Shown here: in pieces, positions 27,029 through 63,201 of the stretch | How the letters are laid out: each line of letters begins with the position of its first letter | Numbering within the stretch: the stretch's first letter is position 1 | DNA from: an uncultured Planctomycetaceae bacterium | GTDB taxonomy: Bacteria > Planctomycetota > Planctomycetia > Isosphaerales > Isosphaeraceae | DNA: 64,000 nt | Direction of reading: 5' to 3' | NCBI GenBank assembly: GCA_963833985.1 | Contig: CAWIAD010000002.1 | Span: 4,768,001 to 4,832,000 of the forward strand | Notes under the pieces: model-generated | Database searches by the model: none | Seen by the model: the letters and a program-made list of their open reading frames with translations, nothing else | What the model was told of the DNA's origin: nothing | Position numbers and translations under genes: made by a program

Positions 27029-30000
27029 TCAACTGCTCCCGGTCTGGCCGAGTGGTAAGTCCTTGTGCATTTGTTGCAGCACTGCCTGCTCAAGTGCGTC
27101 AAGCATTTGAGCCTTCAGGCCAAGCTTTTCGGCGTCCCCCATTTCTTTTCGCGCCAGGTCGGACTGGCCTTGTGCCTGAAGCGCCCAGGCCAGGTGAAAT
27201 GCGAAGCGCGGCACCTTGGGCGCCTGTTTTCGGATCGACCGCAGCGCCTCCACTGCCTGATCGATCTGGCCGGCCTTGATCCGGACAACAGCCTGCGTAT
27301 CGAGCACGGACACGTTCTCTCCGAGAGTCTCGGCCGCCCGATTGATGAGCTCCAGGGCCTCCTGGGGCTTGCCCTGATCTCGCATGGCCAGCAGCCAGGC
27401 CAGCGCATTGAGGGCACCGACGTTTTCGGGGTCGCTCGCCAGCGTGCGACGGCACAGCGTCTCCGCCTCGTCGTAATGATTCTGGCGAATCCAGATCGCG
27501 CTCAGGCCCCCGACCAGCACGGCTGAGTCGGGCCGCTTCTGAAGCGCCTCAACGCTCCAGGCTTCCACCTGGTGTTTCTGGGCCTCATCCGCTGACGGTG
27601 CATCGAAGACCGAGATCGCGGCTGCGGCAACCATTTCGGGACGACAGGTTGACCAGGCCTTCCGGAAGATGGTCATTGCCTCGTTCACGCGGTCCTGAGC
27701 GACGAGGAACCGCGCCAGGGCGAGAACGCGCTCGGGCTCCCTGGGGTCGCGAGCGATGTAGGCCTTGTAGGCTTGCTCGGCCTCCCTGGTAAACCCGTAA
27801 CGGCTCAGGAGGTCGGCCACGAGGCCGATCTGGTCCGGAATCTGGCGGCCGCGGGCGACAAGAAGCGCCAGAACCTGCGGCTTGCGATTCCGCACGTCAA
27901 GGAGTCGCGCCTCCAGCTCCAGCGCCGCGATTCCGTTCGGCTCTACCTGCTTCAGCTCGCCCAGCCAGCGCTCGGCCTGATCAAGCTGGTTCTGGCCGAT
28001 CCAGTAATTGACAAAGTGGGCCAGGTGCTGCGGGCTCCTGGTCCTTGATTTCAAAAGCTTGAACATCTCGTCCTGGTACTTCTGCTCCTCGCGCTGGGCC
28101 AGGTAGAGCTGGGCCAGCAGGAATTGCTCGTTGGAATCCAGCCGGTTCGCAGCCCCCAGCGGCTCAAGAACATCGACGGCCTCGCCGCGCCGGCTCGGCC
28201 GCAGCGCCAGCAAGTTCCCCTTGAGGAGCTGATCCGCCACGCTGCCCGGGTCGTCCTTCAGGTTCTGCTCGACGAGCGCGAGCGCCTGATCCTGGGCGGC
28301 CAGCCGGCCCCTGCCCAGCAGCAGCTCGGCACGGGTCCGGTGGATCCACGCCTTGTCGGTCCTGGATACCTGCGCAAGCTGTTCGAGCCAGTTCAGGAAT
28401 TCCTCGACCTTGTCGGGGCGGTTCTGGGCGGCGGCCACGATCGTGGCGATCTTCAGCGCCTCGGGATCAGCCGGCTTCCCACCAGAGTTCAGGGCCTTGC
28501 CTATCTGCGCCTCGGCCCGCTTCAGATCGCCAACGGCCATCCAGCAGAGAGCCAGTGTCACGTCGGCCCGATCGGCGGGCAGGGCCTGCTGGGCCGCGTC
28601 GATCGCGCTCTTGGCCTGATCGATCTGCCTGGTCTGCGTGAGGTACTGCACGTGGGCCAGCCACGCCTCGGGTACTCCCGGGCCCAGTTCCACGGCCCGC
28701 CGGAATTCCTTGCCCGCCGCCTCGTTCCGCCCCGCGGTCGCGTAGAACCGGCCGAGCGCAAGATGGTCGCCGGCGCGGGTCGAGGTGTCGCTGTAGACCT
28801 GGCGCACCAGCGCGATCCCCTCGTCGAAACTCTGCTTTTGCATCGCCTCGACGGCCTTGATGAGGGTGATCTCGTCGAGGGCGACGCCGCGCTCCCGCAG
28901 CACCTGGGCGACGTGATCAATTTCCGCGAACCGGCTGCGCTGGTAGAGCAACCCCACGAGCCGGCGCGCGAACGACGGCTGGACGTTGCCCAGGTCAACG
29001 GCGCGGAGATCCTGCTCGATCGCCAGGTCGAGATTGCCGGCCAGATCGGCGAGCTCACCAGTCAGGGTCGGCCCGGCCCACCAGTCGGGCCGCTGCTGCT
29101 CGATCTCGGCCGCCAGCACACGGGCTTGCTCCAGGTCCTGGGAAACCCCCTTCCGTGCCTTTTCGATCAGCAGTGCCGCCTGGGCGAACCGCCAGTGCGT
29201 CCCCCTGTCGCCCTCCAGCTTGTGCAGGTCCTGGACGAGATCGGCGGCAGCCGCGTGGTCGCCGGCCTCGATGGCCAGATCGAAGAGGGTCAGCCGGACC
29301 TGGAGGTTCTCCGGCTGGAGCGCGGCCAGCTCGGCCAGGTGCTCCCGCGCCCTGGCCGGCTCACGGAGACGAATCTCCGTCACCGTCAGCCCGTCCAGAA
29401 ATGCGGGCCGGTCGGCGGCGGCAACCTGCGCCCGCGTCTCCGCCAGCTTCGCCACGGCGGCCTTCGCTGCTTCATCACCTTGCCGCCCCCAGTGGTCCAG
29501 ACGGGCGAGCTGGATGGACAGGCTCGGGCCCAGATCCTTTTCCGCCTGGTCGATGATCTTCAAGGATTCCACTCCCTTGCCCTGGCGCTGGGCAACCCGG
29601 GCAAGAGCAAGCCGGTACGGGAGATTGCGCGGGTCCTTCGCCTGGGCCTCGGTGAGCAGCTTCCCGGCCTCGTCCATCCGGTCCCGGGCGACCAGCATCT
29701 CGGCTCGGAGCAGCGTCAGCCGCTCGGCCGAACCGGGCAGGGCCTTGCCGGCAAGGCTCAACTGCCGTTCGACTTCACGCCAGACAGCCGGGTCGCGCGG
29801 TGTCCGGTTGGCTTTCTGAATCAAGGCCGACAGGAGATCGAGCCTGAGCTCGGGCACACGCTCCGCCAGGGGTGCGAGCACCGCGATCGCGTCATCGAGC
29901 TTGCCGGCTCGCACCAGCGAGCGGGCGTACTCGACGCGCGTCGATTCGCCCGCGAGCCGGTTCTCCGCCACGTCCCGCAGCGCCCGGAGCCTTTGCTCCT

Positions 30001-31261
30001 CGGCCCCGACCCGGCCGTAGCACTCGACGAGCATGCGATTGAGCGGGGCGTCGAGTTGCGGCAGCGACTTCAAAAGGGCCCGCGCCGACTCGATCTTGGG
30101 GATCGCCTCGGCCCACTGCTTGCGCTGAAAGAGGACCTTCGCATCCAGGTAGCGCCCGAGCGTCTCGCCCATGCCCGCGTCCCGCAGCCGCGTGATGTAG
30201 CTCTCGGCCTGATTCTCGCCGTCGATCTTGTTTTCCGAACTGAGCGTGTCCGCCAGCCGGAAGGCGAGATCCGGGGAAGGATGCTCCTTGTCGGCCTGCC
30301 GCAGGACCGCCTCGGCCCGGTCGAGGTGTCCATCGCGCGTCTCCAGCTCCGCCAGGGCGATCGGGAAGGCGATATTCCCGGCATGCCGCTTCATCCCCTT
30401 CTGGAGATATCCCCGCGCCCCGGCCAGATCCTGCTTCTGCTCGGCCGCCAGCGCCGCGGTCAGGAGGACATCGGGGTCCTCGGGTGCCAGTTGCAAAGCC
30501 TGCTTCAGATCAGCCTCTGGCGCGGGCGGGCGGAACTCCGCGAGATATCGGAACCGCTCGAGGCGAGCGTGGCCCGAGCCCGGGTTGCTGGCGAGCATCC
30601 AGTCGATCTCGCGGTCGGCCTCCCTGGGATCCTTGCCCAGAGATCCACGCTCCAGACGGGCAAGCTGGACGTAGCTGAAAAGCCGGCTCGGATCGTACGA
30701 GATCGCCTCCTCGAACTCACTGGCCGCCGCCGGGAAATCGGCATCCAGAAGCAGGCATTTGCCATCGAGCTCCTTCAGTTCCGCGAGCTCGACCGCGGCG
30801 CTGGCGACGTCGGTGGCGTCCTGGCTCTTCTCCAGCTTGTTGGCGGCACGGCCAATCAGGTCTTTCAGGAAGCGCCTGGCGTCGGCCGTTCGTTCCGGCC
30901 GCAGTTCCAGTGCCAAGTCCACGCTGCGCCGTTCCAGCGCCTGGTCGTCAGGATTGTGACTCAGGGCCTCCTGATAGACCAGGTAAACCTGCTCCCGGCG
31001 CCGGGGATCCGTCGTGGACTCATCGGTCAGACGGGCATACGACCGCCAGGTCTCGCTATCGTTCGGCCGCAGGCCGAGGTACCGATGGAGTGCCTCCGCG
31101 GCTGTGGCCCGGTTGCCCTGCAACTCCTCCTTGCGAGCACGTTCGATCAGGGCGAAGGCATTGCGTTGCACCTGTCGGCTACGAACAAAGCAGGCCGCGC
31201 CGCCCAGGACGCAGAGTGCCAGGACCGCGCCCGCCAGGAGAACTACGTTAACCTTTCTCAT
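27029..31261 (-). CDS. Giant tetratricopeptide-repeat protein (PrsT-like, EPS/PEP-CTERM-associated)
   Basis: N-terminal TM, 1410 aa of helical repeats, C-terminal ALNALAWLLA...VLDTQAVV...FHLAWAL. Confidence 0.85.
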   Translation of the reverse strand: MRKVNVVLLAGAVLALCVLGGAACFVRSRQVQRNAFALIERARKEELQGNRATAAEALHRYLGLRPNDSETWRSYARLTDESTTDPRRREQVYLVYQEALSHNPDDQALERRSVDLALELRPERTADARRFLKDLIGRAANKLEKSQDATDVASAAVELAELKELDGKCLLLDADFPAAASEFEEAISYDPSRLFSYVQLARLERGSLGKDPREADREIDWMLASNPGSGHARLERFRYLAEFRPPAPEADLKQALQLAPEDPDVLLTAALAAEQKQDLAGARGYLQKGMKRHAGNIAFPIALAELETRDGHLDRAEAVLRQADKEHPSPDLAFRLADTLSSENKIDGENQAESYITRLRDAGMGETLGRYLDAKVLFQRKQWAEAIPKIESARALLKSLPQLDAPLNRMLVECYGRVGAEEQRLRALRDVAENRLAGESTRVEYARSLVRAGKLDDAIAVLAPLAERVPELRLDLLSALIQKANRTPRDPAVWREVERQLSLAGKALPGSAERLTLLRAEMLVARDRMDEAGKLLTEAQAKDPRNLPYRLALARVAQRQGKGVESLKIIDQAEKDLGPSLSIQLARLDHWGRQGDEAAKAAVAKLAETRAQVAAADRPAFLDGLTVTEIRLREPARAREHLAELAALQPENLQVRLTLFDLAIEAGDHAAAADLVQDLHKLEGDRGTHWRFAQAALLIEKARKGVSQDLEQARVLAAEIEQQRPDWWAGPTLTGELADLAGNLDLAIEQDLRAVDLGNVQPSFARRLVGLLYQRSRFAEIDHVAQVLRERGVALDEITLIKAVEAMQKQSFDEGIALVRQVYSDTSTRAGDHLALGRFYATAGRNEAAGKEFRRAVELGPGVPEAWLAHVQYLTQTRQIDQAKSAIDAAQQALPADRADVTLALCWMAVGDLKRAEAQIGKALNSGGKPADPEALKIATIVAAAQNRPDKVEEFLNWLEQLAQVSRTDKAWIHRTRAELLLGRGRLAAQDQALALVEQNLKDDPGSVADQLLKGNLLALRPSRRGEAVDVLEPLGAANRLDSNEQFLLAQLYLAQREEQKYQDEMFKLLKSRTRSPQHLAHFVNYWIGQNQLDQAERWLGELKQVEPNGIAALELEARLLDVRNRKPQVLALLVARGRQIPDQIGLVADLLSRYGFTREAEQAYKAYIARDPREPERVLALARFLVAQDRVNEAMTIFRKAWSTCRPEMVAAAAISVFDAPSADEAQKHQVEAWSVEALQKRPDSAVLVGGLSAIWIRQNHYDEAETLCRRTLASDPENVGALNALAWLLAMRDQGKPQEALELINRAAETLGENVSVLDTQAVVRIKAGQIDQAVEALRSIRKQAPKVPRFAFHLAWALQAQGQSDLARKEMGDAEKLGLKAQMLDALEQAVLQQMHKDLPLGQTGSS

Positions 31262-31366
31262 GTGTCACCACCCAACCAGCAGCATCATAAGACTTGTTCC
31301 AACAACCGCGACTCTGTTCGCAAGGCGGCCTTACACTGCCCGCGGGCCGATTTCATCAGATTGCAG

Positions 31367-32143
31367 CTAGCTGGCGTAGGTTGGACGAACGTGCGAGCTG
31401 ACAGCAATTGGCTCTCCCTGCGGCAAGGGCTCGACGGGGAGTTGATTGTAAAGGGGAAACCGGAAAATCCTGGCGATGACAGGACCGGGAACACACAGCA
31501 AGCCGAACACAGTGGCCAGCGCAATTCTCAGGTCGAGCCAGATTCCATGGTGATCGCGGTAGTAGAGGTCGTAACGCAGCTTGGTGCGCACTGCATCCAG
31601 GTTGGTGTCGGGGCCCTGAAGAACCTGGGCCAATCCGCTGAGTCCTGGTCGAACCAGGAGGCGGTCGCGATAGTTCGAGAAACAACGATCGAGTTGTTCA
31701 GCGATCTCCGGCCGCTCGGGACGGGGGCCGATGAGACTCATTTCACCTCGAACGACATTGACCAGCTGCGGAAGTTCGTCGAGGTGCGTGGCGCGGAGAA
31801 GACGCCCCAGCCGGGTGACTCTCGGATCACCCTGGCCTGACCACACCGGACCAGAATTCCGCTCGCAGTCCACATACATGGTCCGGATCTTGTGGATGCA
31901 AAAAAGCCTCCCACCAGATCCCAGCCGTCTCTGCGAGTAGATGGGGGAACCTTTTGAACCCAAGCGAACGGCGATCAGGCAGAGCAGGATGACGGGAGAC
32001 GTCAGCGTCAGCAGAACGGCCGCAAACAAAACGTCAATAATCGTTTTAAACCGATCGTAAATGGATTTGTCGATCGATCGAACCGGGAGTGAAACCGCCA
32101 TCAACTGAATACCGGAATCCTCGTTCTTGCTCAATGCAAGCAT
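31367..32143 (-). CDS. Priming sugar transferase (bacterial sugar transferase family)
   Basis: SQRRLG, KIRTM, DPRVTRLGRLLRATHLDELPQLVNV, GEMSLIGPRPERP, RPGLSGLAQV, YDLYY. The start could be 32257, 32143 or 32101. Confidence 0.93.
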   Translation of the reverse strand: MLALSKNEDSGIQLMAVSLPVRSIDKSIYDRFKTIIDVLFAAVLLTLTSPVILLCLIAVRLGSKGSPIYSQRRLGSGGRLFCIHKIRTMYVDCERNSGPVWSGQGDPRVTRLGRLLRATHLDELPQLVNVVRGEMSLIGPRPERPEIAEQLDRCFSNYRDRLLVRPGLSGLAQVLQGPDTNLDAVRTKLRYDLYYRDHHGIWLDLRIALATVFGLLCVPGPVIARIFRFPLYNQLPVEPLPQGEPIAVSSHVRPTYAS

Positions 32144-32806
32144 GATCCAGAATCCGCGTCGTTGTACCTTGTCGATGCAAATCAACACTAACACTCGCAG
32201 ACAGTCATCGAGAACAGGACCGTTCTGATCCATCGGGGCGAGGCCAGCTTTCCGCACAATGATCCAGCAGCCTCATGGCACTAGCCGCCAGACCTTCAAG
32301 TCCAACACTTATCCGCCTCGCCGGGATCGACGCTGCCTTGCTGCTCACAATCATCCCTGTCTCTGTCGACCACTGAGTGATATCACCGAGGCTACAATGT
32401 TTGATGACTTGTTATACAGGTACCAAGACGGAGATTCAAGAACAAAGAACTCACGACCATCGGCAAAAAAGGCCGCTGTCATGCTTTCCACGCTAAATAG
32501 TGTCTCAATGGGTCGCCTCAGATAGCCATTCCTCGGCACTCGCAACGCCTGAGCGCTACCATAATTCGGTGGAGACTTGTCATAAGCATCGCTGCCGTAA
32601 CGGTTAGTATGAGGAGTTCGCCTCCCCGATGACGAGCTGGAATTCACAGCCATGGCTCACGAAAGAAAACAAACAATTGCATGGCTGCATGTCGACAAAT
32701 AGCGACATAAGCACGGAGTCCTGGAGCCCCGTCAACCAGACATGGATCATCTCTTGAGACTTTTGTCCACTACTGGGTATTCAGTATAGTAGGAAGGAGT
32801 CCAAGT

Positions 32807-34196: not shown

Positions 34197-37100
34197 ATGA
34201 CTCGCTCCCTCAACCGGAACGAACATGCTGTTGTCAGCCACTTGAGAGCGAACCTCAGTCAGCGGCGACGTCGCCGCCCCCGGCCCGCACTACAGCTCGA
34301 GAGGCTCGAGGACCGACAGCTTCTCAGCAATGCGACGGCCTCGTTCATCAAGACCGACACGGCGGCTCAGGGTAACTGGATCAAGGCCTACGGGTCGCAG
34401 GGATATGACGTCATCGGCAGCTCGGCTACGTTGCCGAGCTACGCCACCGTCGCTCCTTCGGCGCAATCCAGTTACACGTGGGCGACAAATTCGAGCGACC
34501 CGCGCGCGCTCCAGACGGCCGGCGGCACCAGCCGCGTCGCGGCCTGCTGGTATTCTAGCTCGAGTTTTTCGGTCAACGTGAATTTGACTGACGGCCAGCA
34601 GCACGACCTGGAGTTGTATTTCGTCGACTGGGACAGCACCGGCCGCAAGGAGCAAATCCAGATCAGCAACGCCTCAACCGGCGCGGTTCTGGATACTGAG
34701 ACCGTGAGCTGCTTCCACAACGGCGTCTATCTGGACTACGCCGTGAGCGGCAACGTGAACATCAAGATCACCCACACGGCCGGGGCCAACGCCGTGCTCA
34801 GCGGATTGTTCGTTGATCCGCCCTCGACCGTATCACCGGTGCTTTTCCATGACAACTTCAGCTCCAGCCCACCAGGCTGCGCCTGGTCCTTCGTCGGCGG
34901 AACATGGCAGATCAGCAATAACGCGCTCAGCCAGACCAGCACGGCCGCGGGCGATCCCAAGAAAGCCATGGTCACCAACCAGACGTTCCCCAGCAACGTC
35001 ATGATCACGGCCGAGGTCAAGGTCAACACATGGAACGCGGGGGACTCTGCGCGCGCCGGAGTCGGCCTGGACACGAACACGAGCACCGGGAACGGATTCA
35101 ACCTGTTGTTCCACGGCACGAACCAGGTCCAGTTTCTCAACGATAAGATCGCCTGGGGCAACGCCTACACCTTCAACTGGCAGGTCGGCACCTGGTACTG
35201 GTTCCAGCTCGCGAACGTCAACGGAACGCTGGAAGGCAAGGTCTGGGCAGCGGGCACCGCGGAACCGCAGAACTGGATGTTCCAGCAGACGGGTTGGACA
35301 AATCCGCAAGGCACCGCGCCGGCGTTGAACGGAGGCTCGGCCAGCGGTACGACCGGCAGTGACACCGCCTCCTTCGCTTCGGTCTCCGTGACCGCAACCA
35401 GCGTGCAGCCCGACACCGCGAGCGCAGGTTCCGCGCTCACGGCGAACGCCGGCGCAGCGGTGAGCTTTAGCCAGGCGGCCGCAACGGGCACCGGTCCCCT
35501 CACGTACGCCTGGAACTTCGGCGACGGTACGACGGCGACCGGTTCGCTCAATCCCAGCCACGTCTATGCGAACCCGGGCAGCGACACAGCGACGCTGACG
35601 GTCACCGACGCACTCGGCATTCCGGTCACGAGCAGTGTGACCACGACCGTCAACGACGTGGCGCCGACGGCGCGCGTGACGGTCCCGGCATCGGGCGCCG
35701 TGGGCACCGCGCAGAGCTTTACAGCCAGCGCGACGGATGTGAGCCCGGCCGTGCAGGCCGCGGGCTTCGCCTACGCCTGGAACTTTGGCGACGGCAGCAC
35801 CGGCAGCGGCGCCGCGCCCGCCCACACTTACTCCGCCGCCGGCACGTACACGGTGACCGTGGCGGCCACCGACGAATACGGCAAGACAGGAACCGCCAGC
35901 GGAACGATCTCGATATTCGGCCCGCCAACCGTGAGTGCAGGCCCTGCCCTGACCGTCAGCGCCGGTTCGTCCCTGGGCTTCAGCCAGGCGACCGAAACCG
36001 GTGGCACGGCGCCCTTCAGCTATAGCTGGAACTTCGGTGACGGCTCAACGGCAACCGGCAGCTTGAACCCGTCGCACACCTACGCGGACCCGGGCAGCTA
36101 CACGGCCACGATGACCGTCACCGATGCCAACAAGCTGACGGCGACCAGCTCGGTCGCCGTCACGGTCAACGACGTGGCGCCGACGGTGACCTATACGGAT
36201 CCCCCGGCGACTGTGGGCTCGCCGGTCAGCTTCACCGCCAGCGCAACAGACATCAGCCCGGCGGTTCAGGCCGCGGGCTTCACATACGCCTGGAACTTCG
36301 GCGACGGCAACACAGGCACCGGCGCCAGCACCAGCCACATCTATGCGTCGGCCGGGACGTACACCGTCACGGTGACGGCGACGGACATGTACGGCAAGGC
36401 GGGAACAACCAGCGGAACGGTCACAATCGTGCCACCGAGCGGATCGCTGTCTGTCAATGCCGGCGGCAACCTCACGACCAGCGCCGGCTCCTCGGTCACA
36501 TTCGCCGGGTCGGTCTCGGGAGGCACCGCCCCCTACACATACTCCTGGAACTTCGGCGACGGCACGACCTCCGCCGCGAACTCAGCCAGCTTCGTGAACA
36601 CCGACACGACGACCCAGGGCAACTGGAGCGGGACCTACGGCGCTGCGGGCTATGACGTGATCGGCTCGACCACGAGCCTGCCCTCGTATGCCACGGTGAC
36701 ACCTTCGGGGCAATCTTCGTGGACCTGGGCGGCCTCAACAACGGACGCACGCGGACTGCAAGTCCCCGGATCGAGCAACCGGATCGCCGCTTGCTGGTAC
36801 AGTACCACATCGTTCACGATCGACGTTAATCTCACCGACGGCCAGATGCACTCTATTAGCCTCTACGCGGTAGACTGGCTTTCGCAAGGACGGACGGAAC
36901 AGATTCAGGTACTGGATGGCACAAACGGGACAGTACTGAACACCCAATCCATAAGTAACTTCACCAATGGCGAATACCTGAACTGGAATGTCTCAGGCCA
37001 TGTAAGTTTCGTGATCACGGACGTAGCGGGGGTCAGTGCTTGCGTCAGTGGCCTCTTCATCGGGAATGGATCACCCGGTGGTGGTAGCAGTCTCGCTCCA

Positions 37101-38891
37101 TCGCACGTGTATGCGAACCCCGGCAGCTACACAGCCACCCTGACCGCGAGTGATTCGGCCGGACACACCGCCAGCTCGAGTGCCACCGTATCGGTCAACG
37201 ACGTGCCGCCGACCGTGACCCTCACTGATCCGCCCGCATACGCGGGAGCACCCGTCAACTTCACCGCCAGCGCGACCGATGTGAGCCCGGCCGTGCAGGC
37301 CGCTGGCTTCACTTACGCCTGGAACTTCGGCGACGGCAGCACCGGCAGCGGTGCCAACACCAGCCATACATACACGACCGCTGGAACTTACACAGTGATG
37401 GTCTCCGCCACGGACGAGTACGGCAATGCAGGCACGGCAAGCGTCACGATGGTCGTCAGCAACTCGACGCCCAATGGGAACACCATGGTCCTGCAGAACT
37501 TTGACGGCTCCACCCTTCCCACGAACGGATCCGGCGACACCTACCCCAGTATCTACACAGGTGAAGGTGCGGTCGGCACAGTCAGCCTCAACACGACCAA
37601 CGCGATCGAGGGCAACAGCTTCCAGGCGAATATCACCTCCGGAGCAGCGTACATCCAGTTCAACCCTTACGGCGCTGGAGCGATGACGCCCAGGACCTTC
37701 GCCAGCTATTACGCAAATAATAACTCGACCGGCGGCCTTGCGATCGCTCCCGGCTGGCAGTACAACACGTACGACCACCTGAGCTTCTGGGTTTTGCGAC
37801 CCACCACGGCCACCCCGCTTGCCACCGGTGGAATGGACAACGTCGAATTCGGGACCTACGTCAAGCAGATCACCAATGCCAATTCGCAATCGGACGAGGC
37901 AGGAGGCATGCACTACTACAATGATCTCAACCTACCCAATAACGGCCAGTGGACGCAAGTGATCATCAACATGTACCCGCAACACTATCGCGGTGAGACC
38001 GCGGGTGAAACTCCGACGGGTACTGTTTATCCGACCGCGACGAACGGCCCATGGGGCGGAGCCGATCCTCTGAATACTTATAATTATTTCGATACATTGA
38101 CCAGGTTCTACTTCAACGAGTTGCACGCTGGCGCCGGAACTTTTCTGTTCGATGACTTCCAGTTTTACCAGGCGTCCTACCCTCAGGACGATGCCCAGGT
38201 CTCCTCGCTGAGCGGAACCTACAACCCGAACAATAACGAAGTGACCGTAACCTGGGCCCGCCCTGATAATGATAATTCCGTCAATGTCGATGTTCGTTAT
38301 TCCTTCAGCGACATCAACCAGATCGGCTGGAACGCAGCGACACCTGCACCCAACGGGATCCTTACTCCTCCTGGCTGGCAGGGATACGACGGCATGGTGT
38401 ATGACACGACGGCTCTGCCGCTTGCGGGCCACTCGGTCGTCTACATCGCTATTAGGCCGGAGAATTCACCCAACGGACTTTTCTCGGAGATCGCAGTTCC
38501 GATCTATGGAGTCGGCCAGAACCCGGCCCCCGCGTCCGCTTCCTTCCAAAGCTCGGTTTCGAGCAGTACTCCGTCGATTGCCTCCCCCGCGACGCCGTCG
38601 TCCAGCTCCGCAGTCACAGTGATTCAAGCTGGCATGGAGACACTTCAGCCCACAAGCCTATCAGAGTCCTCTGGGACCCTGGGCAACCAGGCGAGCTCGG
38701 TGAGCATCATGGCGCCCGGAGCGATAACCACGCATCAAGGACAGACTGTGCCGCAAGGACCTCGGGTGGCGACCAAGGCCAAAGCGGTGCAGCCCCCGCA
38801 GGCCGCAGTCCAGTCCCGAATCGCTCCGAGCCGCCTTGTGATCAACGATGATGGGGCACAGGTCCGTCGGTCTCATCTCACCGGAGCCTGA
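34197..38891 (+). CDS. Large secreted surface protein: planctomycete LERLEDR-LLS motif, two copies of a beta-rich domain, lectin-like domain, six PKD domains, unknown C-terminal domain
   Basis: RRRRRP...LERLEDRQLLS; six WNFGDG motifs; a duplicated DTxxQGNW...AACWY domain; very Ser/Thr/Ala/Gly-rich. Confidence 0.88.
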   Translation: MTRSLNRNEHAVVSHLRANLSQRRRRRPRPALQLERLEDRQLLSNATASFIKTDTAAQGNWIKAYGSQGYDVIGSSATLPSYATVAPSAQSSYTWATNSSDPRALQTAGGTSRVAACWYSSSSFSVNVNLTDGQQHDLELYFVDWDSTGRKEQIQISNASTGAVLDTETVSCFHNGVYLDYAVSGNVNIKITHTAGANAVLSGLFVDPPSTVSPVLFHDNFSSSPPGCAWSFVGGTWQISNNALSQTSTAAGDPKKAMVTNQTFPSNVMITAEVKVNTWNAGDSARAGVGLDTNTSTGNGFNLLFHGTNQVQFLNDKIAWGNAYTFNWQVGTWYWFQLANVNGTLEGKVWAAGTAEPQNWMFQQTGWTNPQGTAPALNGGSASGTTGSDTASFASVSVTATSVQPDTASAGSALTANAGAAVSFSQAAATGTGPLTYAWNFGDGTTATGSLNPSHVYANPGSDTATLTVTDALGIPVTSSVTTTVNDVAPTARVTVPASGAVGTAQSFTASATDVSPAVQAAGFAYAWNFGDGSTGSGAAPAHTYSAAGTYTVTVAATDEYGKTGTASGTISIFGPPTVSAGPALTVSAGSSLGFSQATETGGTAPFSYSWNFGDGSTATGSLNPSHTYADPGSYTATMTVTDANKLTATSSVAVTVNDVAPTVTYTDPPATVGSPVSFTASATDISPAVQAAGFTYAWNFGDGNTGTGASTSHIYASAGTYTVTVTATDMYGKAGTTSGTVTIVPPSGSLSVNAGGNLTTSAGSSVTFAGSVSGGTAPYTYSWNFGDGTTSAANSASFVNTDTTTQGNWSGTYGAAGYDVIGSTTSLPSYATVTPSGQSSWTWAASTTDARGLQVPGSSNRIAACWYSTTSFTIDVNLTDGQMHSISLYAVDWLSQGRTEQIQVLDGTNGTVLNTQSISNFTNGEYLNWNVSGHVSFVITDVAGVSACVSGLFIGNGSPGGGSSLAPSHVYANPGSYTATLTASDSAGHTASSSATVSVNDVPPTVTLTDPPAYAGAPVNFTASATDVSPAVQAAGFTYAWNFGDGSTGSGANTSHTYTTAGTYTVMVSATDEYGNAGTASVTMVVSNSTPNGNTMVLQNFDGSTLPTNGSGDTYPSIYTGEGAVGTVSLNTTNAIEGNSFQANITSGAAYIQFNPYGAGAMTPRTFASYYANNNSTGGLAIAPGWQYNTYDHLSFWVLRPTTATPLATGGMDNVEFGTYVKQITNANSQSDEAGGMHYYNDLNLPNNGQWTQVIINMYPQHYRGETAGETPTGTVYPTATNGPWGGADPLNTYNYFDTLTRFYFNELHAGAGTFLFDDFQFYQASYPQDDAQVSSLSGTYNPNNNEVTVTWARPDNDNSVNVDVRYSFSDINQIGWNAATPAPNGILTPPGWQGYDGMVYDTTALPLAGHSVVYIAIRPENSPNGLFSEIAVPIYGVGQNPAPASASFQSSVSSSTPSIASPATPSSSSAVTVIQAGMETLQPTSLSESSGTLGNQASSVSIMAPGAITTHQGQTVPQGPRVATKAKAVQPPQAAVQSRIAPSRLVINDDGAQVRRSHLTGA

Positions 38892-39081
38892 AGTGTCCCG
38901 ACCGATGTTTCGCATGAAGCCTCGGTCGGGCTCTTGAACTGAACCAACCTGCCACCGCCGCGGGGCCTGGCCACTCAAACTCGGAGATGATCCAGGAAGA
39001 CATGAAAATCCTGGAACCACGGAGAGCATACAGATCACGGAGAAAAGAATATGGTGAGGAGAAAGACGATAGAGTTTGAAA

Positions 39082-40177
39082 TCACTGTCTACCTGCGGGC
39101 TTGATCTCGCCCAGTGGGATGGAAATCTGAGAAAACCGTCTCGAGTTCTGGGGTTTGATCGCGATGTACACGACCGGATGGCCTTCCAGAGGCAAGGCTC
39201 GAGTGGCATACAGCATGCCGTTGTACCCCTGCCAGCCCGGAGGTTTGATGATTCCCTTCGGCGCAGGCCTGGCGGCATTCCAGCCAACCTGGTGGATGTC
39301 TTCGAACGCGTAGCGCACCTCGTGGGGGATGTTGTTCTCGTCCTTGGGCCGGCGCCAGGTCACGATCAGGTCGTTCCGCCCTGGGTCATGGGTGCCGGTG
39401 ATCGAGTAAACCTGGGCGTCGTTCTCGGGCGCGGTCTCCTGGTAAAACGCGATATCGTCGATCAGGTACGTGCCGATCGCGCCAGAGACTCGTGTCGTCG
39501 ATGTAGAAACGGGTCAAAGCGTCGAAGTAGTTAAACCGCGGCTCGTCCGTGGGGTGGGGCAAATATCCGGCGTCCACACCGCCGCTCTCACCTCGCCGGT
39601 GGTCAGGATGCATGTTGAGTATCACCTGCGTCCACCGGCCGTTGTTGGGTAGATTAAGCTTGTGGTAGTAGTGATTGCCTCCCGTCTCGTCGGACCTGGT
39701 ATCAGGGTTGGCGACTCGCTTGACGAACGTGCCGAACTCGACGTTCGCTCTGCCACCGGTGTCGAGCGGTGAGGCCGATGTGGGCCGCTTGATCCAGAAG
39801 CTCATCCGGTTGTACGTGTTGAACCGCCAAATCGAGGGGCGCGAGACGTGATCACGGGCGAATCCGCGTTTCTCGTTATCATAAGGGTTGAACTGGAGGT
39901 AGAGGCCCTTGGAGGTGATGATGGCCTGAAGGCTATTGCCGGTGATTGCGTCCCGGGAATTCAGCCCGACGGTACCCACGCTCCCTTCACCACCGTACAC
40001 GCTGGGATACGTTTCTCCTGCGGAATTCTTAGGAATCGCTCGTTCATTGAAATCAATCAAAGTCATATGATCTTCGCTCTGATCGTTGGCGGCGGCGGGA
40101 CGATCTGCTTTCCCGGCACACGACACAGCGACCACGACCAGCGCAAGCGCCAAAGTGGTTCCATATTGAAGAATCAT
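39082..40177 (-). CDS. Putative lipoprotein, paralogous to the C-terminal domain of the PKD protein (frameshift near 39485)
   Basis: MILQYGTTLALALVVVAVS-C lipobox-like signal. Joining the frames gives ...LTRFYIDD..SGAIGTYLIDDIAFYQE..ENDAQVYSITGTHDPGRNDLIVTWRRP..., collinear with 37485-38510. Confidence 0.8.
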
Positions 40178-40190: not shown

Positions 40191-41285
40191 TTAGGAAATG
40201 AGTTTTCCAGAACTCTTCTCGAGTATGTCCACAATCCTGCGGGAGGCCTGGCCATCCCAGAGCTCGGGTATCCTCCGCGCGACTTGTCCTTGCGCCAGGG
40301 TCTGGAGCGCCGTCGCGACGATACGATCGGGGTCGAGACCGACCAGGTGATTGGTTCCCTGGTCGATGGTGATGGGCCGCTCGGTGTTGTTCCGCAAGGT
40401 CAGGCAGGGCACACCAAGGACGGTCGTCTCTTCCTGGATACCTCCGGAATCAGTCAGGACCAGCCGCGCCTCAGCCAGCAGCTTCATGAAGTCGAGGTAG
40501 CCAAGGGGTTCGGTGACGATCAGCCCTGGCAATGCGGCGAGGTCACGGCCCTCAAGCGCCTTGCGTGTGCGGGGGTGGACCGGGAAGACGATCGGCAGCT
40601 CGCCCTGGAGCCGGGCGATCGCCGCGAGGATTCCCGCGAGGACCTGGGGATCATCGACATTCGCCGGCCGGTGCAGCGTCAGCACGCCAAAGGGGCGGCC
40701 CTCCAGGTGCAGATCCTCCCGGATCATGGAGCGGCGGCTCAGGTCCCGGCAGGCCAGGAGGGTGTCGATCATGACGTTGCCGACGAGGTGAATCCGCTCC
40801 TCCGCGACCCCCTCGCGGCGGAGGTTGGCCACGCCGCTGGGCTCGGTCACGAACAGCCAGTGGCTGATCGCGTCGGTGAGGATGCGGTTGATCTCCTCGG
40901 GCATGGTGCGATCGAAGCTGCGTAGGCCCGCTTCAACGTGCGCCACCGGGACGCCCAGCTTGACGGCGGTCAGAGCACAGGCAATCGTCGAGTTGACATC
41001 CCCGACGACCACCACCGCATCGGGCTTTTGCTCGAGTACGACCGGCTCGAACCGTTTCATCACCTCGGCCGTCTGCACGGCGTGGCTACCCGAGCCAATG
41101 CCCAGGTCGATGTCCGGCCGGGGAATCTTCAATTCCTCGAAGAACAGCCTGGACATGCGCTCGTCATAATGTTGACCGGTATGCACGAGGAATGCCTCGA
41201 TACCGGCACGGCAGTTAACCTCCCACATCAACGGGGCGATCTTCATGAAGTTCGGCCGCGCGCCGGCGACGACAACAACCCTCAT
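40191..41285 (-). CDS. wecB: UDP-N-acetylglucosamine 2-epimerase (non-hydrolysing)
   Basis: GARPNFMKIAP, HTGQHYD, VGDVNST, HVEAGLRS, PEEINR, TLHRPANVD, TDSGGIQEE and TERP. Confidence 0.96.
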   Translation of the reverse strand: MRVVVVAGARPNFMKIAPLMWEVNCRAGIEAFLVHTGQHYDERMSRLFFEELKIPRPDIDLGIGSGSHAVQTAEVMKRFEPVVLEQKPDAVVVVGDVNSTIACALTAVKLGVPVAHVEAGLRSFDRTMPEEINRILTDAISHWLFVTEPSGVANLRREGVAEERIHLVGNVMIDTLLACRDLSRRSMIREDLHLEGRPFGVLTLHRPANVDDPQVLAGILAAIARLQGELPIVFPVHPRTRKALEGRDLAALPGLIVTEPLGYLDFMKLLAEARLVLTDSGGIQEETTVLGVPCLTLRNNTERPITIDQGTNHLVGLDPDRIVATALQTLAQGQVARRIPELWDGQASRRIVDILEKSSGKLIS

Positions 41286-43648: not shown

Positions 43649-43680
43649 TTTGAGTACTGCGCTCCAGCATCACTGACGGG

Positions 43681-44505: not shown

Positions 44506-44869
44506 GATTCCCCTAAGTGTGCAGCGCGTGATCCATTCTATGTATGTCTTGCGTGACAGTGCGATTTGGACTGCGCCACGGCAGGCGTCTCATCAAGTGA
44601 TTCATCAAGCACGTACCTTTATGAAAATGTAACATCTCAAGGAACACACGAGCAGAGAGGTCGGGAACTTCTTAAACCTTGCGGCCCCTTGACGGGCCAA
44701 TCTGCCTGTGCGCGCTGGACACGATTCAGCAGCCTGCTCTACGGGGCCGTTTCTCTTGATCAGAGACGAAAGGTTCGAAGGTATGGGTGCTCTATCAGCG
44801 CGATGCCCAGAAAATCCACTTCCAGCATCAACCCATTAAGTGCGGGAGCTACGATGAGGTGGCCTTGGC

Positions 44870-47309: not shown

Positions 47310-47341
47310 TGGGTCGATACAGGCGAGACCAGGTTAGAGCC

Positions 47342-49799: not shown

Positions 49800-51692
49800 T
49801 CACAGGGTGACGCGATGGCGGGAGCACCAGCTCAACAGAACGTAGAGGGCGAACGGGTGCTGCATGTTGATCCGGCGCGACCCTTTGAGGAATCTTGACC
49901 ACGTCGCGCGTACTCGATCGGGACGAAGCCCGATCGCCGATGCCAGGTCGGGATTGTCGAGCACGCGATCGAGCCGCGGTTTGAGGGCGCCCCGCATCCA
50001 GACCTCATAAGGGATGACGAAACCTTGCTTGCGACGATGGACGACCTCCGGCGGCAAAGCATCGCCCATGCCCTCGACCAGCATGCGTTTCGGCACCGAG
50101 CGCGACATCTTGACCCGAGCCGGCAACGGGGCAACGAACTCGATGAGCCGGTGGTCCAGAAGCGGCAGGCGGACCTCCAGACCGTGGGCCATGCTGCACA
50201 CGTCGGTGTCGCGGAGCAGGGAATTGCGGAGGTAGAAGTTTAATTCAAGCTGAGAAACCTGGTTGAGCAGGTCGCCGGCCAGCTCATCGGGCGGAACGGC
50301 CGACGCGATGAAACTGGCGGCCGGCACCATCTCGGCCGGACGGTCGAGCAGCTCCACCCGCAGGTCATCCCAGAAGACCGCTCGCGCCAGGGAATACGTC
50401 TCGTACATGCTCATCCGGCTCATCAGCAAGCACGCCGCTTTCTGAGTCGAGACCCGCGTCGGCGCCAGCGAACGGATCGCGCGACTGACCAGGTGCCGCA
50501 TGGGCCGGGGCACCGCGCCGAATCCCAGCACTTTCGGGATCAAGCGGAAATTGTCGTAGCCCCCGAAGAGCTCGTCGCCGCCGTGCCCGCAGAGCGCCAC
50601 GGTCAGGCCCGACTGCCTGGCCAGCTCGCAGACGGCGTAGGTGTTGATGCCGTCGATGCTGGGCTGATCGCCGGCCTCGAGAGCGTCGTCGAACCGAGCC
50701 AGGAGATGATCCGGGCTGACCGGCTGGGTGACGTGACGTGTCTGGTACCGCGCAGCCAGTCGTTCGGCAAAAGGTCCTTCTCCATACCCTTTCTCGGTGA
50801 AATGCAGGGTCAGGGTCCGGACGTCATGATGGTCATGCTGAGCGATGGCGGCCACGATCGCGCTGGAGTCGATTCCGCCCGAAAGGAAAACGCCCAGCGG
50901 GACATCGCTGAGCAAGCGGCACTCGACGGCTTCGTCGAAGGTTTTCCGGAACACTGTGGTGAGCTCTCGCGGGGATTGCTTTCCGCCCCCAACCCCAGCG
51001 GAGGCGTACTCATATGGAGACGACCAGTACCGGCGGATCTCCCGGATCCCATCCCGCGCCGAAAACCGCATCCAGTGGCCGGCCGGCAGCAGCCGGACAT
51101 CACGCAAGATGGTCAGCGGCTCGGGGACGGTGCCGTAGGCCAGGTAACCATCCAACGCCTGTCGATCCAGCTTGCGGGGGACCAACCCCGTCGCGAGCAG
51201 GGCACGAAGCTCGCTCGCGAACAGGAACCGGGAACCGACCTGGGCGTAGTACAGAGGCTTGATGCCGAGCCGGTCTCGGCACAAGAAAAGCTCCTGCTCG
51301 TGCGGATCCCAGAGCACGAACGCGAACATCCCGCGGAATCGCTCGACGCAACCCCGGCCCCACTGCCGGTATGCCGCAAGGAGGGTCTCGGTATCGCACG
51401 TCGACCGATATTCTCCGCCCAGCTCTTTCCTCAGCTCGAGATGGTTGTAGATTTCCCCGTTGTAAACCACCCAGCTTTCGCTTTGGGAATCGCGCATGGG
51501 CTGATGCCCAGCCTGGCTGAGATCGAGGATCGCCAGCCGCGAATGCCCCAGGCACAATTCAATTCCTGGTGACTCGGTGGACAACGTCTCGATTCCGGCA
51601 TCGTCAGGTCCTCGGTGGCGCTGGGCCTCGACCATTGAACGGACCCAGTCCACGCAAAGCTCGGAACCCAGGATTCCAGCAACTCCACACAT
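49800..51692 (-). CDS. asnB: Asparagine synthase (glutamine-hydrolysing)-like amidotransferase
   Basis: MCG start, HRGPD, RLAILDL, NGEIYN, RDRLGIKPLYY, LSGGIDSS, GGDELFGGY and EVRLPLLD. Confidence 0.95.
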   Translation of the reverse strand: MCGVAGILGSELCVDWVRSMVEAQRHRGPDDAGIETLSTESPGIELCLGHSRLAILDLSQAGHQPMRDSQSESWVVYNGEIYNHLELRKELGGEYRSTCDTETLLAAYRQWGRGCVERFRGMFAFVLWDPHEQELFLCRDRLGIKPLYYAQVGSRFLFASELRALLATGLVPRKLDRQALDGYLAYGTVPEPLTILRDVRLLPAGHWMRFSARDGIREIRRYWSSPYEYASAGVGGGKQSPRELTTVFRKTFDEAVECRLLSDVPLGVFLSGGIDSSAIVAAIAQHDHHDVRTLTLHFTEKGYGEGPFAERLAARYQTRHVTQPVSPDHLLARFDDALEAGDQPSIDGINTYAVCELARQSGLTVALCGHGGDELFGGYDNFRLIPKVLGFGAVPRPMRHLVSRAIRSLAPTRVSTQKAACLLMSRMSMYETYSLARAVFWDDLRVELLDRPAEMVPAASFIASAVPPDELAGDLLNQVSQLELNFYLRNSLLRDTDVCSMAHGLEVRLPLLDHRLIEFVAPLPARVKMSRSVPKRMLVEGMGDALPPEVVHRRKQGFVIPYEVWMRGALKPRLDRVLDNPDLASAIGLRPDRVRATWSRFLKGSRRINMQHPFALYVLLSWCSRHRVTL

Positions 51693-51704
51693 GACCACGA
51701 ACCT

Positions 51705-52805
51705 CTAACCAACCAACTGGTGACTTCGCTGATGCTCACTCCGGACGATTTCCCGGCTGCGGTCGGCACGGGTTCTCTTGAACAATCGCCTGAGGATTTC
51801 GACGAAACCGTAGATTTCGGCCTCGAATTCAATTTGCGAAAGGGTATCCGCGTCCAGAAATCGTTTCAGAGCCAGGAGTGGCGTTGCGGAATCGTTCAGA
51901 CCGGGGTCGCAGGTCACGGCACTGCAAACCTTCGCGGCGGTCAGCCACGGCCACTGTGCCCTGGACCATAGCCCGCTCGGGTAGCAAAAATGGTTGGGGG
52001 AAACGCCAAGCACGATCTTGAGGAAGGTACGATTGTCTTCGATCTCACGATGGACCACGCATTCCTCGACCGGAAAGCGATGGCGATGCGTGTGCAACTG
52101 AATGCTCACGCCGGACTCCGCCGTCTCCCGGAGCTCATCCGTCGTCATCAGGCTCAAAGACCGGCTCCGGAGCACTCCATGATAGCTCACATCCAGACGG
52201 GCCGCAAGCTCCCTGGAGAGCCGTACGCGTTGATTTTCTGTGAGATGTTCTTCTCCGTACTCAATAATCTGCCAGACCAGCTTGTTCTTGTCGTCCTCGC
52301 TCTGGGAGAAGTCGACGGTTCCATCCCGGTCGAGGTCAAGGCCGCTGAGGTCGAGAGTGGTTCGGCCCGTCTTCCAGAACAAGTACTGGATCACGAGCCG
52401 GAAGATCGGGTTTCTTTGCGCAACGTAGTACGTTGTCACGTAGATCGTGGCCGGGATCTCGAACTGCCGGAGGATCGGCAGTCCAAGCGAATAGTTGCTG
52501 TAGAACCCGTCGTCAAACGTAACGACGATGGCGCTCCTGGGCAAGTCTCCCCGCGCGAGGCCGGCGAGCGCGGCATCCAGGCTGATCACGGTGAAGCGGT
52601 GGTCGCGGAGTGTTTTCAGCCGTTTCGCCAGGATCTCGGGACGCATGAAGAGTCCTGGGCGAAAACGATGTTCGTCACCCAGGGAGAGACCGTGGTAACA
52701 AAGGATCCGCAATTCTTTGGCGGTGCAGCGCCGCGCCAGGCCGAAGAGGCCAAAAAATTTTGCGACGTATAGGACGGCAAGCTTAAAAATCTTGTACATC
52801 AACAT
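51705..52805 (-). CDS. Polysaccharide deacetylase family protein
   Basis: ILCYHG, VTFDDGF, LHTHRH and FCYPSG. Confidence 0.9.
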   Translation of the reverse strand: MLMYKIFKLAVLYVAKFFGLFGLARRCTAKELRILCYHGLSLGDEHRFRPGLFMRPEILAKRLKTLRDHRFTVISLDAALAGLARGDLPRSAIVVTFDDGFYSNYSLGLPILRQFEIPATIYVTTYYVAQRNPIFRLVIQYLFWKTGRTTLDLSGLDLDRDGTVDFSQSEDDKNKLVWQIIEYGEEHLTENQRVRLSRELAARLDVSYHGVLRSRSLSLMTTDELRETAESGVSIQLHTHRHRFPVEECVVHREIEDNRTFLKIVLGVSPNHFCYPSGLWSRAQWPWLTAAKVCSAVTCDPGLNDSATPLLALKRFLDADTLSQIEFEAEIYGFVEILRRLFKRTRADRSREIVRSEHQRSHQLVG

Positions 52806-52808
52806 GAC

Positions 52809-54025
52809 TCATGATCGGCTGAACTCGGCCTGACGAACTCCAGGATGGCGCCCGGTCGACTCAATCTGTTGCCGGAAGAACCGGACCGTCCGCCGAGCCA
52901 CTTCGTCCCAGGAATAGTCGGCCGCATAACCCGCGATCGACTCGCGATCCCACGTCCCGCGCAGGGCCACTTCCAGCGCCTCGCAAAGCGCCTCGGACCA
53001 GCCAGTGGGCACAATGAATCCCCGGTGCGGAGGTGCGACGAGGACCGCGTTATCTCCCGCGGGCGTCGTGACCACGGGCAAGCCGCACGCCATCGCCTCC
53101 AGAATCGCGTTGCAACACCCTTCATCATCGGTCGAGAGTGCGAAGACATCCGCGGCCTGCAGCCATAGCGCAACGGTTTGTGGAGGGAGGGCCCCCGTGA
53201 GTCGAACCGATTCCTGCATTTGCCGCTGTTCGATCCTGCGCCGGAGAAGCTCGGGGTAGGCCGGCTCGTGCGCACCACCCCCGATGATCACCAGTCGAAG
53301 GCGATCGTATTTCGTTCGCAATCGGGCCACCGCATCGACCATATGGTGGTGTCCCTTACCGGCAACGAGCATGCCGACGCTCACGACCAGTTGATCCTCT
53401 TCTCTGACTTCGAGGATTCGACGGGCCTGGTCCCGGTCGCCGAGCCGGAACGTTCGACGATCGACGGCGTTGGGGATGACCTCGATCTTCCCGGCGCGAT
53501 CCCCTGCTCGACGGCAAGCGCTTTGAGAGATTCGGCAACTGTGATGATGCCAGTGCATCGACCTAGGGCCCAGAGCAACTGCTTGCCGCGCCAGCGGTGG
53601 CCTAGGATCGGTCTCTCGAGGCCCCTCATCGTGATAAAGACCGGGCGATCCTGGGCCAGAGCCGCCCGGACGCAGCCTGCGCCCTCAGGATAACCGAAGT
53701 GGGCGTCGATCGCGTCGATGGGATGAGCCTTCTCCAACTCGCTTATTGCGGCCAGAACGGAACGCTTCACCCAGTGGCTGTCCATGCCCTTCAGTATACC
53801 CGGCAGGTAGAACATCCGGCGATGCAAGACGCGCAGGCCATCCTGGTGGTGCATGATCGAAAGGCGGTCCCCGGGCCAGGCTCGCACTATGGGAAACCAG
53901 GGGACAGGATTGATGACCGACACGTCCGCCAGACGGGCCAGGGCCGCAATCCGCCGCTGGATGAACAGCCCCCGGTAAGGATTCCAGGGCGAAGGGTAAT
54001 CGATGCTGACGCTGGCGATCCGCAT
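52809..54025 (-). CDS. Glycosyltransferase family 4 (frameshift near 53491)
   Basis: N-terminal half IDAHFGYPEG; C-terminal half VIPNAVD, KGHH and EGCCNAILEAMACGLPVV in the adjacent frame. Confidence 0.88.
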
Positions 54026-54141
54026 TGGACCCTCATGACCGCTGCCGTAGTCGCGTATGGCTGCCTCGTAACGGGCCGCAGAATCGAGCTGAGATACCGG
54101 CGGAGATCCCCTCGATAATGAGCGATGTCCCTCTAGAACGG

Positions 54142-56629: not shown

Positions 56630-56814
56630 AAAGCCATAAGGCTACTCAAACCGTGGCACGCTATCCACGTCGAAGCCGGCCCTGGGGCAAAATGAGACTC
56701 TGTCGTCAAACCGAAGTTGTAGAGTGAGCGATCCAGGCTCTTGCGTAAGTCCCGCCTCGGGCGGCGGTGTTGGGCGGCCAGCCCACGTTCGCCCTCGAAG
56801 TGCCCGCGCGGGGC

Positions 56815-58266: not shown

Positions 58267-58279
58267 GTTCCCTTCTTGT

Positions 58280-59335: not shown

Positions 59336-59356
59336 CTGCCTCTCGATCTGATAATC

Positions 59357-60553: not shown

Positions 60554-60688
60554 CGAGCCCGTTGTCCTTCAGGTGGTGTGGCGATGCCGATTATTAAGCG
60601 AGCAGCGGACGAGTGAGGGCTGACGATTCTGCCGTCGAAAGGAACCTCGTCATTCTTCAGTTTCCGAGTCTGGCGGCCGGAGGCGTGA

Positions 60689-61762: not shown

Positions 61763-61901
61763 AATTACACCATATTACTTTTTTGCATAACCAGTATACA
61801 CCGTGCGTAGAAGCAACGAACGGGTCCCTTATCGCTCTATTTGTCACTCTGTCAAGGACTTGATGAACTTGGAAACAACAACTCAAAGTGATATTAGTTT
61901 A

Positions 61902-63086: not shown

Positions 63087-63201
63087 CTCGTTGTGTGGTC
63101 TTGTCTACGGTCGTGTTCATCGAAGGCTTGCTTGCTGAGCAACTGGAACAGACTTGATTGTTCTTTTGTAAATCCAGAATTATCAGCGTCTTCGGCTACC
63201 A

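Follow-up and report, generated by a model that had tools for sequence, protein, structure and literature searches.

An unnamed two-domain module with a predicted carbohydrate-binding fold occurs twice at an exopolysaccharide locus of an uncultured planctomycete

Why does one exopolysaccharide (EPS) locus carry the same protein module twice, once on a giant surface protein and once as a small secreted protein? The question is raised by a stretch of 64,000 nucleotides from an uncultured Planctomycetaceae bacterium (GenBank assembly GCA_963833985.1, contig CAWIAD010000002.1, positions 4,768,001 to 4,832,000 of the forward strand; hereafter the window). An earlier reading of this DNA, made from the letters alone (the sequence-only reading), had proposed that a single domain of about 330 aa acts on the same glycan both at the membrane and at the tip of a stalk. 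We arrive at a modified answer, which we give about an even chance of being correct: an unnamed two-domain module is placed at two addresses and binds the polysaccharide of the surrounding exosortase-type, Wzy-containing cluster.

The duplication is real and collinear over the whole length of the module, as had been claimed. Nucleotides 37485-38510 (+), encoding residues 1097-1438 of the 1564-aa surface protein, matched the minus-strand gene at 39082-40177 by tblastn in two frames, one on either side of a frameshift. In the first frame 105 of 212 residues were identical (50%) over 40066-39494 and in the second 71 of 123 (58%) over 39474-39112, with a combined E of 5e-99. Every one of the six motif pairs quoted earlier was found in both copies, and at the DNA level the copies were 67% identical over 708 nt (blastn). 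The genome (10.16 Mb, two contigs) holds only these two copies. The surface gene and the small gene are convergent with a spacer of 190 nt (38892-39081), and the small gene begins 14 nt past the stop of wecB, with which it is likely co-transcribed. A promoter and terminator scan gave nothing exceeding shuffled sequence, and no terminator between the two convergent genes. Two points of the earlier description had to be corrected: the module is not the C-terminal domain of the surface protein, since a 126-aa tail rich in S, T, A and P comes after it, and 39082-40177 is not a single open reading frame in the present assembly.

No family had been recognised for the module, and this was confirmed. 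Neither copy had a match in Pfam, NCBIfam or the PDB sequences, a PHROG search with the surface copy gave no match, and no characterised family explains both copies. An AlphaFold2 model built on an alignment of 93 sequences (pLDDT 94.2, pTM 0.93) was nearly all beta and predicted two domains per module instead of the single one proposed, namely a CBM11-like beta-sandwich joined rigidly to a fibronectin type III-like (Fn3-like) domain. The best structural match of domain 1 (residues 1-232) was the carbohydrate-binding module (CBM) CBM11 (1v0a; Z 11.8, root-mean-square deviation 3.4, 153 residues aligned, 18% identity), roughly tied with a CBM44-type module (2c4x, Z 11.7), a chondroitin lyase N-domain (Z 11.5) and CBM22 (Z 10.7); the complex I assembly factor 7zkq also matched this fold (Z 11.1). 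Foldseek agreed on CBM11 (E 1.3e-5), and in the Atlas every named cluster for domain 1 of P0013, an intact 375-aa relative of the small copy, was in the CBM clan (SGBP-B, CBM30, CBM11, CBM27; 0.91-0.93). Domain 2 (residues 237-342) matched the Fn3 domain 6mfa (Z 9.1, root-mean-square deviation 2.7, 86 aligned). The CBM-like fold, as modelled, supports the glycan-related role that had been suggested. A lyase-type jelly-roll (PL7 or PL20 type) was not among the top 50 structural rows as the matched domain, Foldseek gave Cip1 at TMq 0.25, profile matches to Polysacc_lyase (E 0.011) and a Cip1-like family (E 0.078) were weak and came from one member each, and a BFVD fold search returned only low-TM tail and CBM-like rows.

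When the module was compared by eye with the CBM11 chain, YTGEG lined up with YSGEG, His143 with His102 and Trp156 with Trp113. The concave face of CBM11 is its sugar-binding face, and by analogy the conserved G123, Y125, H143, Y145, R207 and Y209 would lie on the concave face of domain 1. D223 in the last strand of this domain is 94% conserved and holds what we take to be the place expected for a structural calcium site of CBM11. A complex prediction for the pair of another locus (L022) with Zn and Ca scored 0.00; it gave no verdict and was counted neither for nor against binding.

The module had been placed inside an EPS locus, and this was borne out both here and at about half of the relatives' loci. 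The host cluster is an exosortase/PEP-CTERM type EPS locus: the FemAB-like TIGR03019 was above its cut-off inside the window, and exosortase and Wzc were found about 6-9 kb past the window end (L128), both above cut-offs (exosortase TIGR02602 at L128:5749-6684, 163 bits against 105.55). No PEP-CTERM sorting domain was matched with NCBIfam at E 0.001 in either module-bearing gene. For the relatives, 36 non-redundant loci of at least 5 kb were scanned with a heuristic gene caller (90 aa or more): 14 of the 15 in one set, 20 of the 49 in another, from which 28 short ones and one duplicate were dropped, and those of genomes G075 and G380. A locus was classed as EPS when it held Wzy, Wzx, WecB, DUF3473, exosortase, or at least two glycosyltransferase (GT) or AsnB genes. 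EPS clusters were found at 17 of the 36 loci, in Planctomycetota, Fibrobacterota and Gammaproteobacteria, a count that includes kin, which are not independent. As background, the same rule applied by blastp to the module's own genome gave 14 of 507 20-kb windows, probably an undercount, with any marker present in 37 of 507.

The linkage was also seen with one individual gene. Among 400 Planctomycetia genomes the full module occurred only in G075, G049 and G380, and these same three alone had a 71-77% identical orthologue of the GT at 59360-60553, the other 24 matches being 45% or lower. In G555 the module and the GT orthologue were likewise both present, and in 40 relatives neither the module nor the Wzy of the locus was found. 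The core shared among the EPS loci comprised Wzy, AsnB, GT4s and WecB, and wecB immediately precedes the small copy in the window as well as in G075, G380 (L086), L022 and L004. The sequence-only reading had suggested testing for homologues in Wzm/Wzt loci; no Wzm or Wzt match was found in the 20 EPS-type stretches compared, many of these loci being incomplete. We conclude that the module marks one exosortase-linked polymer subtype across at least three phyla.

Pairing of a surface copy with a small copy did recur elsewhere, as had been supposed, but only at a minority of loci. Two copies were found at 6 of the 36 loci and all six were EPS loci (6 of 17, as compared to 0 of 19 others). Three pairs were convergent (G075, L022 and L004, in the last of which the copies lie 3 kb apart and one is broken) and three were in tandem (L005, L007, L019). 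G075 repeats the window order of wecB, short copy and convergent surface protein, its short copy is intact, and its EPS genes are orthologous at 54-77%. The order is kept in L022 too, and in L004 with two genes in between. The ExLExRxL motif was present on the second copy in all four convergent pairs, the window included (regex). Whole-genome copy counts in five genomes were 3, 2, 2, 1 and 1.

The two copies of the window differ in charge and in conservation. The surface copy has 28 D+E against 8 K+R (net -20), and the small copy 34 against 34 (net 0; -1 on the hidden Markov model envelope). The contrast of a basic with an acidic copy was therefore rejected as stated: the surface copy is acidic, but its twin is neutral. 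Within the family (median -11) the small copy is among the less acidic members, at rank 217 of 238. All other extracellular segments of the surface protein that were measured were acidic (isoelectric point 4.05-4.8) and only the 126-aa tail was basic. Because the whole surface protein is acidic, the acidity of its module likely reflects extracellular location and no designed charge pair. Net charges of the long and short copy in six pairs were -20/-1, -13/-1, -17/0, -17/+2, -15/-4 and -9/-6, the longer being the more acidic in all six, and across the family the median was -17 for 39 long forms and -10 for 175 short ones.

At 98 columns conserved in at least 70% of the family the surface copy deviated at 19 and the small copy at 4. 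The surface copy keeps E138, H143, Y145, H167, R169, D203, R207 and Y209, and it has lost R74, N97, R98, H146, H164, E234, K261, H268, E269, H278 and N302, with substitutions that include R74S, R98H, H146N, H164Y, E234Q, K261D, H268V and H278N. Most of these losses are common to its small clade, and on a topology like that of CBM11 the lost residues would cluster close to where the two domains join. The short copy was the better conserved in all four locus-confirmed pairs (deviations short/surface 4/19, 13/17, 3/6 and 1/6). Loss of residues is not a rule: the set persists in other surface copies (L022, L019, P0112), and in G075 H164 is missing from the short copy as well as from the surface one. 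H164 is therefore not an essential catalytic residue everywhere. With H146N, H164Y and E234Q in the surface copy, all at positions that might be called catalytic, the two copies of the window are probably not equivalent.

Although unnamed, the module family has hundreds of relatives: 109 of similar length and 20 longer ones (the window's own included) were found, and representatives numbered 790 at E 0.001 and 276 at 1e-30, of which the best 150 were retrieved. In total 238 distinct full-length modules were aligned. Those loci that carry titles come from Planctomycetota, Fibrobacterota, Gammaproteobacteria, Bacteroidota, Melainabacteria, a Candidate Phyla Radiation bacterium and a Woesearchaeote. 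The small copy had been called a lipoprotein; a lipobox-like Cys after a hydrophobic stretch was matched here and in P0013 (regex, not SignalP), but this is a minority trait, matched in 22 of the 150 short forms that have an N-terminal extension and absent from the short partner in G075. Among the 54 long forms there were five sensor-like fusions, four with an extracytoplasmic function (ECF) sigma factor and one with FecR, in which a hydrophobic helix precedes the module; these are candidate polymer sensors. In these fusion proteins (P0149, P0141, P0153, P0136 and P0228) several conserved module residues are changed.

Further forms of the module were observed. Phages encode it near head, terminase and portal genes (L064/L149, L148:7893-9008, L150:7944-9062), either stand-alone or ending a 966-aa protein, and the conserved residues are mostly kept in L064. 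After the module, 31 of 150 short forms finish in a short PxxPxxLxV tail, possibly a sorting signal. P0130 (1036 aa) has two module copies in one protein, and the long forms P0116, P0118 and P0119, which come from contigs of identical length, may be three copies in one locus. In genome G389 (L087, L088) five distant partial matches covered part of domain 1 only, in open frames of 700-1470 aa; the two frames that were scanned carry Calx-beta and Ig domains, a related module lacking the Fn3 partner. In literature searching the module was nowhere described, an unnamed family being hard to find by words and subscription papers lying outside the coverage.

The sequence-only reading had allowed that the frameshift might be real and the small gene a pseudogene; the break looks most likely like an assembly error. 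It falls between IDDT and IGTY, both halves match the same intact relative, P0013, no stop is present, and nearly all conserved residues are kept (94 of 98 conserved columns match the consensus). In a survey of frameshifts, 214 genes were called in 19 stretches of the same-genus genome G004 and four of G075, and 120 of them had an orthologue here with at least 50% identity and at least 75% coverage. Frameshifts were found in 17 of the 120 orthologues in this genome (about 14%) and in 2 of 120 in the reverse control (Fisher p 4.5e-4); of these two, one is again the ambiguous pair and the other an artefact of a repeat module. The second split gene of the window, a GT4 at 52812-54025, is whole in G075. 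With frameshifts at this rate, any other gene that looks split in this genome should be regarded with doubt.

Four independent sequences (window 39478-39490, L004:14520-14545, P0086 and P0106) are broken within about 15 codons past the TRFY motif, a clustering that is probably chance in error-prone assemblies. The L004 break, being at the same junction, raised the possibility of a programmed frameshift. It was rejected, because wecB, asnB, wzy and two GTs are likewise split in the assembly of L004, the break there sits in a C run and more than 200 relatives are intact, and truncation would cost the sandwich its last strand.

In the reading that we prefer, binding of the polymer at two addresses, the small copy would be exported by its signal peptide (lipid-anchored here, cleaved in G075) and, co-transcribed with biosynthetic genes, would hold or guide the nascent polymer at the cell envelope. 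The ExLExRxL protein would be exported to the cell surface, where the PKD stalk would present the module and further CBM-like domains as a matrix adhesin, tethering polymer outside the cell. The predicted fold, the exact co-occurrence with one GT, the ECF and FecR fusions and the phage copies fit a recognition role. A number of results weigh against this reading. Among the 25 of 33 families listed at E up to 1, PF03425 (CBM11) matched 0 of 93 members of the module family, and profile-profile comparison with CBM11 (hhalign) gave probabilities of 0.25% and 8.5% against a thin alignment of 10 sequences; the kinship with CBM11 therefore rests on fold, not on family membership. Non-EPS settings made up 19 of the 36 loci, with degradative neighbours, housekeeping genes and a phage, and three of them adjoin GH28 or GH123 genes. 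Classical CBMs ride on catalytic domains, unlike the module, for which 175 of the 238 full-length members stand in proteins no longer than 480 aa. No catalytic carbohydrate-active enzyme (CAZyme) domain above the Pfam cut-off was found in any of the 54 long forms; what came closest was a CEMIP beta-helix in P0125 and, below the cut-off, a GH99 in P0199. The conserved ionisable residues resemble an enzyme-like set (R98, E138, H143, H146, H164, H167, R169, D203, R207, E234, K261, E269, H278), which is degenerate in the ECF fusions. The module was single at 30 of 36 loci, so the pair is optional. In a tree of 57 of the 238 rows (LG+G4 without mixture) the short partners required 3 changes in all 200 bootstrap trees and formed no single clade, the long partners behaved likewise, and the grouping of 12 short neutral forms into one clade was rejected by the approximately unbiased (AU) test (p 0.008; group chosen after the first tree). 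Members of the Fibrobacterota pairs were each other's sisters. As the short partners are not one clade, a single inherited two-gene system was not supported by this tree; the pair would have arisen more than once, or been reshuffled.

Several of these points are what would be expected of the main rival, which we regard as possible though rather unlikely: that the module is a new polysaccharide-processing enzyme (a lyase, hydrolase or esterase), with an active small envelope copy that would trim or clear polymer and a decayed, binding-only surface twin. Envelope enzymes are encoded in the alginate, Psl and Pel operons. The dominance of the stand-alone secreted form would suit an enzyme, and so would the long forms, whose added domains are all accessory (Ig, PKD, LamG, Fn3 or dockerin), as is usual around a catalytic core. 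The same holds for 73 columns, many of them His, Arg, Glu or Tyr, that are conserved at 80% or more even though identity between the sequences falls to about 30%. The better conservation of the short copies and the GH28, GH123 and sulfatase neighbours at non-EPS loci point the same way. However, surface copies in L022, L019 and P0112 keep the His set, both G075 copies lack H164, the galactose-binding-like fold is to our knowledge rarely catalytic, and no lyase or hydrolase catalytic domain was the matched part among the top 50 structural rows, although this absence is not diagnostic. A wider form of the enzyme idea appears unlikely to us. It would make the module a phylum-spanning family of EPS-processing enzymes, with a His/Glu/Arg site where a CBM11-like sandwich meets an Fn3 domain, serving one exosortase-linked polymer type; it would have been duplicated repeatedly, one twin acting as an enzyme at the envelope and the other becoming acidified at the surface (here a matrix lectin, the second site being lost), and borrowed by ECF sigma factors as a polymer sensor and by phages as a virion component. 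That the pairing is incidental we consider improbable: a mobile secreted module would have been duplicated and shuffled onto a surface protein in a horizontally moved EPS island, with no common job and the small gene perhaps a true pseudogene. The excess of single loci, the repeated origin of pairs, the failure to find locus and module in 40 relatives and a break outside any long homopolymer would agree with this, but the wecB, short copy and surface copy order repeated in three other loci, the restriction of pairs to EPS loci, the well-kept halves of the small gene and the genome-wide frameshift excess argue otherwise. It is highly improbable that the module is a protein-protein anchor, in which docking of the acidic surface module onto its neutral envelope twin would keep the adhesin attached to the cell. 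The charge asymmetry in six of six pairs and the surface protein without a recognised C-terminal anchor would accord with docking, and CBM-like folds can bind proteins (7zkq), but most loci have one copy only, the short copy is neutral and not complementary, and the acidity is common to the whole surface protein.

The remaining features of the surface protein and of the locus are listed in Table 1. In the surface protein the ExLExRxL motif, described as a planctomycete surface signal (PMC8567305), stands at residue 34 (regex), and the Pfam model for this motif (PF07595) gave no match at E 0.01. Seven PKD domains were detected (PKD_4 in all seven), and no recognised catalytic domain. A domain of about 165 aa is repeated at residues ~44-210 (34326-34826) and ~790-960 (about 36560-37080), the second copy being seen by eye. 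The first copy has 230 relatives but no Pfam name and is predicted to be a beta-sandwich (pLDDT 97, Z 10.7 to 6d50, CBM35/CBM6-like rows), which makes it a candidate for a second unnamed CBM family. A Trp-rich domain of about 200 aa (residues 211-410, 34827-35430) had no Pfam match. Upstream of the surface gene are short open reading frame fragments (32770-33608, GC 55%) that look like a possible remnant of an IS630-type transposase. Between asnB and wecB lies a block at 41397-49902 (epimerase, oxidoreductase, GT8-like, GT2, FkbM methyltransferase, wzt and wzm), which G075 lacks at that place, asnB there being directly beside wecB; GC drops to 54-55% at 44-48 kb of the window. The block is likely a later insertion, by which the cell may gain another polymer or a side chain.

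Table 1. Coordinates of the features discussed, given as positions in the window
Feature	Position	Strand	Remark
Surface protein, 1564 aa: ExLExRxL motif, two CBM-like sandwiches, ~200-aa domain, seven PKD domains, module, low-complexity tail	34197..38891	+	
Module domain 1 (residues 1-232), predicted CBM11-like beta-sandwich with long inserted loops; HYY, HPxHxRG and YFDxLTRFY motifs inside	37485..38180	+	structure match 1v0a
Module domain 2 (residues 237-342), predicted Fn3-like, strongly conserved across the family	38193..38510	+	structure match 6mfa
S/T/A/P-rich tail, 126 aa, basic end, without PEP-CTERM match	38511..38888	+	
C-terminal part of small secreted copy, with the last strand of domain 1 and the Fn3-like domain	39082..39477	-	73% to P0013
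Frameshift site, 13 nt in place of four codons in the closest relatives	39478..39490	-	
N-terminal part of small secreted copy: module residues 1-213 after a lipobox-like signal (VAVSC)	39491..40177	-	66% to intact P0013
wecB, UDP-GlcNAc 2-epimerase, directly upstream of small copy	40191..41285	-	
Shared EPS core: AsnB amidotransferase, deacetylase, GT4s, Wzy-like, GT2, FemAB-like (TIGR03019), DUF3473 deacetylase	49800..63981	-	
PrsT-like TPR protein and priming sugar transferase, far side of surface gene	27029..32257	-	

Exosortase-linked EPS drive floc and biofilm formation of soil, sediment and sludge bacteria, and the protein grip on these polymers is poorly known. The module is small, soluble and, as modelled, well folded, and its conserved envelope copy and diverged surface copy make a natural matched pair for the question of binding versus catalysis. 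Should the module bind, it would represent a new CBM family and could serve to probe a polymer not yet characterised; should it cut, it would be a new CAZyme family on a seldom catalytic fold. If the proposed reading is true, the cell likely grips its own slime at two places.

CBM11 (PF03425; 1v0a) is the nearest known fold, and CtCBM11 is described as a type B beta-glucan-binding module (PMC4416756). Domain 1 is predicted to share this fold without Pfam or profile-profile kinship, and the module may work much as a type B CBM does. It differs in about 60 extra loop residues that carry the conserved His/Arg/Glu set and in an obligate Fn3-like partner, and it is mostly stand-alone. CBM11 is appended to cellulases, whereas the module is linked to EPS synthesis. 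Structural rows for SGBP-B (PF18329), CBM30, CBM22, CBM27 and Lyase_N were at Z 9-11.5, with Atlas clusters in the range given above. Surface glycan-binding proteins have a like architecture, an Ig stalk with a terminal binding module, but the module has no sequence match to them and in about half of its loci the context is one of biosynthesis, not utilisation. XrtA/PEP-CTERM EPS loci are known (Haft et al. 2006, PMC1569441; epsSMASH preprint 10.64898/2025.12.21.693542), and the host cluster likewise has exosortase, TIGR03019, DUF3473 deacetylase, amidotransferase, PrsT-like TPR protein and Wzc; the module copies have no PEP-CTERM match, and the module is not a named component in the parts of those sources available to us.

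Secreted proteins that bind the EPS of their own cell are described for Vibrio (RbmA, PMC5605196) and Pseudomonas (LecB on Psl, PMC6522473). They offer an analogy for how the surface copy may work, and RbmA has Fn3 domains. RbmA is encoded together with its polymer genes. No homology to either protein was shown, and the unit found here is a predicted CBM-Fn3 unit near the end of a PKD stalk, with a twin at the envelope. CBM114 of the Bacillus cereus PelA-DA is a CBM described to bind nascent polymer near the export site (PMC13254593); in that description it is alpha/beta/alpha and fused to a deacetylase, in contrast to the module, which is predicted to be all-beta and has no recognised catalytic partner. 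New as compared to these systems is an unnamed CBM-fold family that is tied to one exosortase-type polymer and is optionally, and repeatedly, paired.

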